A DNA stretch of 62,748 bases from Minisyncoccia bacterium (GCA_049287305.1 JBAQFO010000003.1:1-62748), one strand, 5' to 3'. Counted from the first letter of the stretch, positions 33,402-49,541 are shown. Translations and numbers: made by a program. Notes: a model not told the origin generated them from the letters alone.

Positions 33402-33422
33402 AACTTGCAATAAGTATATACT
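33395..33422 (+). promoter_or_regulatory. Strong sigma70-type promoter for the DUF4430 operon
   Basis: TTGACA (33395-33400), a 16-nt spacer, then TATACT (33417-33422). This implies a ~230-nt 5' UTR. Confidence 0.6.
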
Positions 33423-33429
33423 AAAAGAG

Positions 33430-33661
33430 TTCTTCTTAAAAATTTAGAGAAGTGATTGGGGAAACTGGTGACCTGCCTCGCGCTCATGCGCGAGTCAAGG
33501 CGGGAATTCCAGTACAGTGCCGCTACGGTAAGCCCTGCGTTTAATCGCAAGGACAAGTCCGACTACCAATCATTTAATGTTTAGTCCCGAGCAGGATAAT
33601 CCTTCATCATTGTATTTTGAAGGCCCCACAATTCTGCTCCAAAGGCGGATTTTTTTATTTT
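33430..33661 (+). promoter_or_regulatory. Structured 5' leader, a candidate riboswitch (cobalamin-like motifs, unconfirmed)
   Basis: Nested stems are TGATTGG (33453-33459)/CCAATCA (33566-33572), ACTGG (33464)/CCAGT (33509), CCTGCC (33472)/GGCGGG (33499) and the hairpin TCGCGC-TCAT-GCGCGA. GGGAA and CCGCTACGGTAA (33520-33531) resemble the cobalamin riboswitch core. Confidence 0.4.
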
Positions 33662-47764: not shown

Positions 47765-47823
47765 GCAAGATATCGGGGCTCAATCCGCCAGACTCTTATT
47801 GCTAATTTTCTATACAAGGCTGG
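47765..47823. repeat. 59-bp direct repeat, left copy (attL-like)
   Basis: Matches 49266-49324 at 58 of 59 positions (A at 47772 versus G at 49273). Confidence 0.9.
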
Positions 47824-47980: not shown

Positions 47981-48000
47981 AATCTATGAAAGGGGGGCTT

Positions 48001-48372
48001 ATGGCCTCATTGAAAACAGAAGACGTCCAACGCTTTAAAGGCGGACGGATTCAAATCGAAAACGCAAACGAGGGTCATCTCTACTATGGGCAAGTGGAGA
48101 CGATTCACGTCGACGAAGGCGACGGCGAAAAGATGCTGGTGATCACGTTCACTTGGCTGGCGGAAGGCCAGGGGTACCCGCCGACTGCCCGTAAGTGGGT
48201 GGTCAAGCGTGATCTTCTCACCTACGACGCCAACCTGGAAATCTACCAGGTCAAGACGACCAGCAGTCACTGCATCACTCTCACTTCATGGATGAACGTG
48301 GATGAAGTGACGCTCCATGTGCCCAGCTGTGCAATCATCCCACTTAACCCCTCCGACGTCGAGGGTCTGTAA
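48001..48372 (+). CDS. Hypothetical protein, 123 aa (GC-rich island gene A)
   Basis: The ATG at 48001 is preceded by AAAGGGGGG. No family was recognised. Confidence 0.6.
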   Translation: MASLKTEDVQRFKGGRIQIENANEGHLYYGQVETIHVDEGDGEKMLVITFTWLAEGQGYPPTARKWVVKRDLLTYDANLEIYQVKTTSSHCITLTSWMNVDEVTLHVPSCAIIPLNPSDVEGL

Positions 48373-48423
48373 GTGCAAGTCGCGTAAGTCAACCAACAAC
48401 CAACTTTCAACAGGAGGTCTCCG

Positions 48424-48672
48424 ATGCAGGGAAGCAAGCAACAACTGCGTATCCATGCCCAAGGTTCTGTGGTTGCGGACGGTACTTTGTCTGACATCGT
48501 CACGAAGGTCCTCGAAGGTGTCGGTGGCACCATTGCCGGAACCGATGTCACCACTGTCATCGTGTATGTCGAAGTCGACATTCCCGATGGTGCCCCCAGG
48601 AAGAAGCTGAATCCGGACATTGCACGGCTCCGCAAAGAGCTCGGTCGCAATGTCACCGCAATCCACTTCTAA
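48424..48672 (+). CDS. Hypothetical protein, 82 aa (GC-rich island gene B)
   Basis: The ATG is preceded by AGGAGG at -11. No family was recognised. Confidence 0.6.
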   Translation: MQGSKQQLRIHAQGSVVADGTLSDIVTKVLEGVGGTIAGTDVTTVIVYVEVDIPDGAPRKKLNPDIARLRKELGRNVTAIHF

Positions 48673-48790
48673 CGGTGCAACTCCGATGCGGGCGGCAAAC
48701 ACTCCGCCGTGAGTTGACCGGCGGAGTGGAGCTCATGAGTTCTTTAAAAATCGTGTTAGTAAAACGCGAACCTTATAGGGTTCCGTATGA

Positions 48791-48831
48791 GCCCTGTGAG
48801 TAAAAGAACTCTCGCAGGGCTTTTTCTTTTT
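48791..48831 (+). terminator. Intrinsic terminator of the island cassette
   Basis: GCCCTGTGAG-N10-CTCGCAGGGC followed by TTTTTCTTTTT. Confidence 0.75.
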
Positions 48832-48864
48832 CAATTTACACTATTGACAGATGTGGATAACTCG

Positions 48865-48894
48865 TTGCATTGTTTTTTACGATCATGATATAAT
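48865..48894 (+). promoter_or_regulatory. Promoter for the candidate ncRNA
   Basis: TTGCAT (48865-48870), an 18-nt spacer, then an extended -10 box TGATATAAT (48886-48894). A perfect DnaA-box 9-mer TGTGGATAA lies at 48852-48860 just upstream. Confidence 0.45.
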
Positions 48895-48899
48895 ACTCA

Positions 48900-49123
48900 C
48901 AGTTCTTTTCATGAAAAAAGTTTACACCTTACTCTCTTCGGAGAGCAGATAGTCCCGACCGAAAGGCCACTGTGTCAAAAAAATTTCTAGAGGGGTTATC
49001 GTAAGGATTACGCATTAAAGTTATAAGTTGTGGGGTCACCGCACTAAAAAATAATTTAGAACAGATCGTAATCAAGGCTTAATAAACATTCGACCGTTTA
49101 TTGACTCTTGATTGCGATTTTTT
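48900..49123 (+). ncRNA. Candidate ~220-nt non-coding RNA of unknown class
   Basis: It lies between the promoter above and a long hairpin with a T-run (ATCGTAATCAAG 49065-49076 / CTTGATTGCGAT 49107-49118, then TTTTT). It includes a CTCTC-TTCG-GAGAG tetraloop hairpin (48933-48946). The only ORF is 13 codons long. Confidence 0.35.
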
Positions 49124-49265
49124 GGTAATTAGACAAAAAATCAAATCTAGTGAAAAGAACTAAATTATTAATTAGTAATTTAGTTCTGTATGAAAAACAA
49201 AAAATTGGTTTGGGTAACGGAGAAGAGGTGTGTGAAAGATTTACTGCCGTTCAAGCAAAATCCTC

Positions 49266-49324
49266 GCAAGATGTCGGGGCTCAATCCGCCAGACTCTTAT
49301 TGCTAATTTTCTATACAAGGCTGG
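49266..49324. repeat. 59-bp direct repeat, right copy (attR-like), overlapping the tRNA-Gln 3' end by 4 nt
   Basis: See 47765-47823. Confidence 0.9.
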
Positions 49325-49391
49325 GAGACTAGGATTCGAACCTAGATAATATCCTCCAGAGGGATATGTCCTACCATTAGACGATCTCCCA
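49321..49391 (-). tRNA. tRNA-Gln (anticodon CUG)
   Basis: The reverse complement is TGGGAGA-TC-GTC..GAC-A-TATCC-CTCTGGA-GGATA-TTAT-CTAGG-TTCGAAT-CCTAG-TCTCCCA-G. U1:A72 and G73 match bacterial tRNA-Gln. Confidence 0.9.
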
Positions 49392-49541
49392 GCTTTGAAT
49401 ACAAAACAACAGCAATTTATTTCCCTCAGCCTCGCCCGTAGGCTACGGCCGAAGGACAACCTCGCAGTATTTTTGACTTATTCTCCTAAACTTAGCATAC
49501 TCTGCCTAGAATACAAAGAAGATATTTGATATAATGGCGAA

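Follow-up and report, generated by a model that had tools for sequence, protein, structure and literature searches.

In phage lambda, the transcript initiated at PR', the 6S RNA of about 200 nt, ends at the terminator tR' before the late and packaging genes, a unit that is subject to antitermination by Q. Structured RNAs occur in other phages, too: the put RNAs of HK022 lie just after a promoter, and the pRNA of phi29 is tied to DNA packaging. Here, we describe an RNA that can be compared with these systems, encoded in a 62,748-nt stretch of the genome of a Minisyncoccia bacterium (GCA_049287305.1, JBAQFO010000003.1:1-62748; hereafter, the window), in a 647-nt gap between a GC-rich two-gene cassette (47986-48672, plus strand) and a tRNA-Gln(ctg) gene (49319-49391, minus strand). 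An earlier note, made from the sequence of the window, had proposed that this gap encodes a structured transcript of about 220 nt that is bounded by a promoter and by a hairpin with a T-run and is not assignable to any known family. The present analysis supports this core proposal, given that homologues were found which vary in sequence while preserving the structure, and the segment 48900-49190 is a member of a conserved, structured non-coding RNA family. In its terminated form of about 220 nt (48900-49123, plus strand), the RNA is predicted to consist of a 5' box, the hairpins P1 and P2, the junction J2/3, a P3/P4 region and the terminator P5. As argued below, this RNA is probably the 5' attenuator leader of a ParB-methyltransferase/terminase operon in a mobile island of Patescibacteria, orphaned in the window by deletion.

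Scanning the whole window with the 4227 models of Rfam 15 at the gathering scores detected only rRNA, two tRNAs and a cobalamin riboswitch, all located elsewhere (the riboswitch, at 33409-33588, scores 36.8 bits versus a gathering score of 31.5), and a scan of 48600-49400 at E<=10 returned nothing but noise; the suggestion that the RNA lies outside the known families therefore holds. The ten other members of the family, scanned at the gathering scores or at E<=1, likewise yielded no Rfam family that matches the leader, the only overlaps being sub-threshold noise on L095 and at the edge of L038. A literature search turned up nothing specific on this leader RNA.

Altogether, the family has 11 members, from Patescibacteria genomes, metagenomes and one viral contig. 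Close relatives of the window copy, with 72-92% identity, were retrieved by blastn-type and pattern searches (L033, L006/G111, L027, L007/G062 and L004/G003); G111, G062 and G003 belong to the same genus as the window genome, and L027 is a metagenome contig. The more distant members were recovered by covariance models with E-values between 4e-11 and 8e-7: the first model, built from six sequences, found L038 (the viral contig) and L061 (G358), and rebuilt models added L094 (G250), L095 (G327) and L097 (G675, from another order of the same class). The models (R1-R3) score the leader of the window at 198-225 bits and its reverse strand at 35 bits only, on the hairpin alone. Two weak matches, L059 (18.6 bits) and L057 (14.8 bits), have the expected location and orientation and were not counted among the 11 members; L042 (20.9 bits) is a false positive because it is located inside a pilC-like gene, and the pattern matches L034 and L036 were rejected for lack of any similarity. 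Three DNA-pattern scans of viral contigs were empty, a terL-based scan of such contigs produced no relative, and blastn against the INPHARED phages gave no match. The family is rare, being represented in 4 of the 212 genomes of the genus, the window genome included, and in about 1-2% of the sampled order and class. The L033 contig (CAYXTY010000045.1; 6.6 kb), which carries a CPR-type methyltransferase/terS-like pair together with the leader, is binned in an 'uncultured Gammaproteobacteria' MAG, a label that is probably a binning error rather than a case of transfer.

Sequence conservation extends from the -35 element to about 15 nt before the ATG of the downstream gene and peaks from CAGTTC (48900) onward. 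Within the leader, no ORF is conserved, and variable sites lack a 3-nt periodicity. The 13-codon ORF mentioned in the earlier note indeed starts at 48911, with an ATG that is lost in the relatives; neither this ORF nor a 48-aa ORF on the minus strand is conserved, and both were discarded as possible products.

Applied to six sequences, RNAalifold yields a P1 hairpin with a UUCG loop, a long P2, the P3/P4 region and the P5 terminator, and the fold z-score of the leader is -4.45. P1 (CUCUC-UUCG-GAGAG, plus strand), which had been reported with coordinates off by one nucleotide, maps to 48932-48945; all 5 of its pairs show compensatory changes across 10 sequences, with variants such as GCCCC/GGGGC in L038 and CCAC-UUCG-GUGG in L094. 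P2 (48948-49000, plus strand) is a long, irregular hairpin with an A-rich apical loop, in which 10 of the 14 pairs of helices 2 and 3 are compensatory. A further small hairpin singled out in the note, CGTAA-GGA-TTACG, is present at 49000-49012 but is lost in half of the close homologues. Over the model alignment of 10 sequences, which are few and related and were in this case aligned by fitting to the model, 29 of the 44 pairs are compensatory and 87% of the cells are paired, versus 41-52% when the strands are slid; this is the structure-preserving variation among homologues that the note had suggested looking for. In a structure-blind MAFFT alignment of 8 sequences, 87% of the cells are paired versus 40-51% slid and 18 of 44 pairs are compensatory, and none of 500 shuffles was as good. 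In L094 and L095, which were absent from the model used, 37 of 40 and 37 of 44 positions, respectively, are paired. Several of the conserved pairs are G.U pairs, which establishes that it is the plus strand that folds and argues against a DNA cruciform.

The two-tier hairpin with a T-run that had been noted at the end of the transcript is P5 (49063-49123, plus strand), a predicted intrinsic terminator composed of a hairpin (49063-49119) and six T residues (49118-49123). Helices 5 and 6, which form P5, are paired in 91% and 85% of the cells, and a U-run follows in 8 of the 10 aligned members; L038, L061 and L097 contain an extra canonical terminator before the ATG. Thus, a G+C-containing hairpin with a U-run separates the leader from the ORF, as in an attenuator. 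The other component of an attenuator, a covarying antiterminator helix that occupies an arm of the terminator and excludes it, is found as well. The antiterminator strand GAUUACG in J2/3 (49006-49012, plus strand), which is the 3' half of the CGTAA/TTACG hairpin, can pair with CGUAAUC (49067-49073) in the 5' arm of P5, and the next nucleotides of this arm, AAGG (49074-49077), are the target of CCUU near the 5' end (48927-48930). In the 10-sequence alignment, which was not fitted to this helix, its columns being unpaired in the model, 87% of the cells are paired versus 14-48% slid and 5 of the 7 pairs are compensatory, values that were reached by only 2-3 of 500 shuffles. The two partners change together, to GGUUGCG/CGCAAUC, AAAUGUA/UACAUUU or, with one mismatch, GAGUGCG/CGCAGUC, and reading by hand shows that L038 and L061 have the helix with a 1-nt register shift. 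When the nascent RNA is truncated where the 5' arm of P5 ends, minimum-energy folding yields the antiterminator helix for 9 of the 10 homologues, often extended by the pairing of the 5' CCUU with AAGG, and nascent folds of L097 contain a similar helix between J2/3 and the arm. The suspicion voiced in the note that the RNA engages in alternative long-range pairings is thus backed, in the form of this helix, by covariation. For the full leader, the terminator fold has an energy of -57.0 kcal/mol versus -44.9 kcal/mol when the antiterminator is forced; given that the terminator fold is 12 kcal/mol more stable, read-through would require kinetic or effector help.

The predicted promoter (48865-48894, plus strand), also correctly described in the note, consists of the -35 hexamer TTGCAT (48865-48870), an 18-nt spacer and the extended -10 element TGATATAAT (48886-48894), that is, TATAAT with a TG extension. 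A consensus promoter scan had no entry for it because the -35 hexamer matches the consensus at only 3 of 6 positions. In G111, G062, G003 and L027, the -35 element and TGnTAnnnT are retained with unchanged spacing to the start of the RNA, and analogous elements (TTGCAT/TATAGA and TTGTGA/TATACT) are present in L061 and L038. The spacers between the terminator and the ATG are 30-70 nt long; in L061 and L038, they offer too little space for a promoter, and none is recognisable, whereas that of the close homologues (65 nt) might include one.

Each of the 11 members immediately precedes, in the same orientation, a ParB-methyltransferase ORF or, in the window, its stump. That the members found by covariance models all occupy this position is an independent positional confirmation of the family. 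In the relatives, the ATG opens a protein of 426-445 aa, the N-terminal part of which is ParB-like according to PHROG families and which also contains the Pfam domain N6_N4_Mtase. A terS-like gene follows wherever the contig shows the downstream region, and five loci also include terL. The order ParB-methyltransferase, second methylase, terS-like HTH protein and terL is shared by L027, G111, L038, G358 and another contig of the window genome, C13; in L027 and G358, terL is followed by a large serine integrase and then by host genes. Thus, the G358 locus reads LexA/CI-like S24 repressor, LOOT RNA, leader, ParB-methyltransferase, methyltransferase, TerS, TerL and serine integrase, and L027, where the contig ends upstream of the leader, has the same order from the leader onward. 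No upstream regulator gene is conserved: the upstream neighbours differ between loci and encode proteins without a family match, one nuclease of the GIY-YIG type and another that is SNase-like, an OB-fold protein and a 276-aa protein without matches.

The leader and the gene behind it are combined in more than one way. Two methyltransferase types with a mere 26% identity are preceded by leaders that share 72-92% identity, and the leader nearest to that of the window, in L033 (92%), precedes the other type; the leader therefore marks a recombination joint between modules. Because the leader follows neither the TerS type nor the methyltransferase type, a pac site is an unlikely reading. When 38 ParB-methyltransferase loci were scanned with the models, 35 had no match in the upstream slot, 2 had weak ones and only L061 had a clear one; a hairpin with a T-run before the ATG was seen in two of three inspected loci with unrelated upstream sequence. 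Homologues of this type of ParB-methyltransferase are encoded in 70 of 401 genomes sampled from the order, frequently with 2-3 copies each, and form at least 120 clusters at a threshold of at least 73% identity in the protein collection.

In 7 of the 11 loci, the leader adjoins another RNA, LOOT (RF03000), which is found at a distance of 145-300 nt upstream and on the opposite strand in L004 (2035-2156), L006 (1935-2066), L007 (2029-2147), L038 (2366-2487), L094 (1889-2023) and L095 (2015-2149), and on the same strand in L061 (118-240). A second placement of LOOT, about 1 kb beyond the 3' end of the ParB-methyltransferase gene and on the opposite strand, is seen in other loci of such genes, namely, L064, L066, L076, L077, L079 and L082. 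The Rfam scan detected no LOOT copy in the window, and RNAduplex comparisons of LOOT with the leader gave no consistent signal, the duplex energies of long sequences being uninformative.

In the window, little of this arrangement is left. The upstream cassette, which occupies the place of the LOOT-containing region found in other islands, consists of two GC-rich ORFs (47986-48372 and 48424-48672, plus strand; 128 and 82 aa) without Pfam or PHROG matches and has its own terminator at 48790-48821. Downstream, an ORF of 38 codons (49190-49306, plus strand) is the N-terminal stump of the ParB-domain DNA methyltransferase gene: its beginning aligns, NPR motif included, with the N-termini of the corresponding proteins of G111 and L027 (426/427 aa), and the homology extends to about codon 26 (approximately 49265), breaking exactly at the start of the right copy of a 59-nt direct repeat with one mismatch (left copy 47765-47823, right copy 49266-49324), the last 6 nt of which are the 3' end of tRNA-Gln. 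Because the homology stops at this repeat, the window contains only a remnant, namely, promoter, leader and gene stump; its copy of the leader RNA is an orphaned relic, the operon having been deleted beside tRNA-Gln. The 59-nt repeats bracket an insert of 1.44 kb at the 3' end of tRNA-Gln that comprises the GC-rich two-gene cassette, the leader and the methyltransferase stump, with no recombinase. Among the 80 genomes of the genus that were searched, there is no clean empty tRNA-Gln site, and a nearby tRNA-Gln occurs in a single relative, where it is oppositely oriented. Contig C13 of the same genome (3558-7763) encodes an intact ParB-methyltransferase, a methylase, a terS-like protein and TerL; this methyltransferase is 44% identical to that of L027, and the 200-nt region upstream of it is unrelated.

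Taken together, the RNA is best read as the 5' leader of an operon rather than as a free-standing sRNA gene. In the attenuator model, transcription would start about 6 nt after the extended -10 element, near 48900, and the nascent RNA would fold into P1, P2 and the antiterminator, with GAUUACG (49006-49012) and the 5' CCUU (48927-48930) holding the 5' arm of P5 (49067-49077). Once made, the 3' arm of P5 could displace both strands, so that the stable P5 with its U6 tract would form and an RNA of about 220 nt would be released. An effector that stabilises the antiterminator fold would let the polymerase read on into the packaging operon, in which the ParB-domain DNA methyltransferase would be the first gene, followed by the second methylase, terS, terL and the serine integrase. 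Candidate effectors are an island protein, a helper-phage protein or a small molecule. Transcription as such, the use of the promoter, termination at P5, the direction in which the switch works and the action of an effector are all inferred from the sequence. No known aptamer or protein-binding motif was found in the leader. One may tentatively imagine a sensor RNA of a new class, either a riboswitch-like aptamer or a target of a helper-phage or island protein, which times the switch-on of the packaging operon, although we regard this extension of the model as doubtful. In this genome, where the operon is deleted from about codon 27, the leader is a recent relic that could, at most, still give rise to the short terminated transcript.

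The alternative that fares best is a stand-alone sRNA gene, the terminated transcript of about 220 nt acting in trans, for example, on mRNAs of the island or of a helper phage, with the downstream gene a mere neighbour. Analogous sRNA genes are c4 of phage P1, sar of P22 and oop of lambda. The possession of its own promoter and a strong terminator fits such a gene, as do the far better conservation of the RNA compared to the gene behind it, the survival of RNA and promoter in the window although the operon is gone, and the frequent adjacency of LOOT, another orphan RNA. However, all 11 loci have the RNA in the same position and on the same strand with respect to the methyltransferase ATG, an additional promoter would not fit in front of the ATG in L061 and L038, complementarity to a target was not found, and a covarying antiterminator that competes with the terminator would be purposeless in a simple sRNA gene. 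We therefore consider an sRNA gene unlikely.

Distinctly less plausible is an effector-independent, put-like RNA, the 5' domain of which would bind the polymerase and carry it through P5 and later terminators. The adjacent stem-loops P1 and P2 directly after the promoter, the presence of one or two terminators before a multi-gene operon and the variable upstream region, which lacks a conserved cognate regulator gene, would all suit such a mechanism. Yet, the covarying antiterminator helix favours a structural switch over modification of the polymerase; all considered, processive antitermination by the RNA itself appears very unlikely.

The repeats around the leader raise the question whether the signal resides in the DNA. 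Five copies of AGTTCT/AGAACT lie within 48701-49200, the maximum among 8238 sliding 500-nt windows of the 830-kb genome, in which the mean is 0.32 per window and no other place reaches 4; none of 5000 shuffles attained a count of five, so the fivefold recurrence of the octamer motif pointed out in the note is exceptional. In the homologues, conservation is limited to the copies at +2 and +258 of the RNA, and those at 48738 and 48805 are confined to this window. The latter belong to the inverted pair GAGTTCTTT (48737-48745) and AAAGAACTC (48803-48811), which lies around the terminator of the upstream cassette and is absent upstream of the RNA in the homologues. A repeat scan found this pair, the second inverted repeat proposed in the note (48901-48911 and 49151-49161) and the palindromic hairpin at 49156-49187; the direct near-repeat of 48901-48920 and 49183-49200 is only partial, consisting of AGTTCT followed by ATGAAAAA in both copies, and was not listed by the scan.

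The 5' box AGUUCUUUUCA (48901-48911, plus strand) is complementary over 11 bp to 49151-49161, in the post-terminator box UGAAAAGAACU, which overlaps the hairpin AGAACUAAAUUA/UAAUUUAGUUCU; box and hairpin together span 49151-49187 (plus strand) and end 2 nt before the ATG. The 5' box is conserved in the six close members, in all of which it can pair with a box beyond the terminator, and, on our reading of the alignment, the helix that it forms with the post-terminator box is kept in L027 despite changes in the 5' strand. By the same reading, the arms of the 49156-49187 hairpin vary yet remain complementary in L033, G111, G062 and G003, and L027 is devoid of the distal arm. In read-through transcripts, pairing between the 5' box and the post-terminator box could link the folding of the leader to translation initiation. 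Upstream of the promoter, 4 nt from the -35 element, there is a perfect DnaA-box 9-mer (48852-48860, minus strand; TGTGGATAA on the plus strand, TTATCCACA on the minus strand), as the note had observed. G062 and G003 have the same 9-mer at a distance of about 150 nt from the RNA, on its upstream side, and L038 also has it upstream (positions 1925 in L007, 1927 in L004 and 2633 in L038); in the four loci with the box, it sits between the leader promoter and LOOT where LOOT occurs. It could reflect an origin or DnaA-dependent control of the promoter. A replication origin would call for several DnaA boxes and an AT-rich unwinding element; here, there is only one perfect box, with single boxes in three other loci.

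Under the DNA-level explanation, the AGTTCTTT boxes and palindromes are repressor operators, recombination sites or part of a replication origin, including the variant in which the 261-bp segment between 48901-48911 and 49151-49161 is invertible. Apart from the density of AGTTCT/AGAACT, unique in the genome, and the recurrent DnaA boxes, this explanation can draw on the serine recombinase and LexA/CI-like repressor encoded in the islands and on the GTTC/GAAC inverted repeats that overlap the promoter or the start site in L061 and L038; given the latter, an operator for the island repressor may coexist with the RNA. As a substitute for the RNA, however, DNA sites fail on several counts: neither DNA nor the opposite strand could accommodate the conserved G.U pairs without mismatches, the reverse strand scores poorly in the covariance search, all 11 assembled members share one orientation to the promoter and the gene, the lack of covariation of the leader with the TerS or methyltransferase type is at odds with a pac site, and covariation in multiple helices is left unexplained, while DNA sites may be present alongside the RNA. 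A purely DNA-borne signal is thus highly improbable. Finally, it is barely credible that the leader is inert debris, its similarity reflecting recent common descent of a mobile-element fragment with an unselected structure: the window copy is a deletion remnant, and the conservation among the six close members, which are 72-92% identical, could be largely recent, but the five divergent members, detectable only with structure-aware models, all occupy the same genomic slot and rebuild the helices from different sequences, and the shuffle and slide controls also oppose this view.

The putative attenuator leader adds a structured RNA family without a match in Rfam 15, with a testable architecture of two covarying, mutually exclusive helices. 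It provides a handle on the timing of methylase and terminase expression in mobile islands or prophages of uncultured, ultra-small bacteria, and together with LOOT marks the control region of these islands. If the sensor reading is correct, the leader would reveal how a terminase island in CPR bacteria recognises the right time for hijacking a helper phage. For this particular genome, the message is modest: the leader is a relic with nothing left to regulate, and the 38-codon ORF is a gene stump.

Compared with the phage systems considered at the outset, the leader resembles the late leader of lambda in that a short terminated transcript precedes packaging genes, the expression of which would require read-through. 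It differs in that no gene of the Q family is conserved among the upstream neighbours and in that the leader RNA itself is structured and contains an antiterminator helix, an element that antitermination by Q is not known to require. The likeness to put and that to pRNA do not extend to a terminator/antiterminator pair, which neither of these RNAs is known to have, and no Rfam family, that of pRNA included, matched any member scanned. LOOT is an orphan structured RNA of the same islands, although its model matches the leader at no threshold tried. Close parallels are riboswitch expression platforms, the RAT elements of the BglG/LicT systems and PyrR attenuators, which share with the leader the succession of a promoter, a structured leader, an intrinsic terminator and a same-strand ORF. 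As in terminator/antiterminator leaders generally, the 5' arm of the terminator has an alternative partner further upstream, and covariation is seen in each of the two competing helices. Unlike the known leaders of this kind, the one described here contains no known aptamer or protein motif and would regulate the methyltransferase/terminase operon of a Patescibacteria island.
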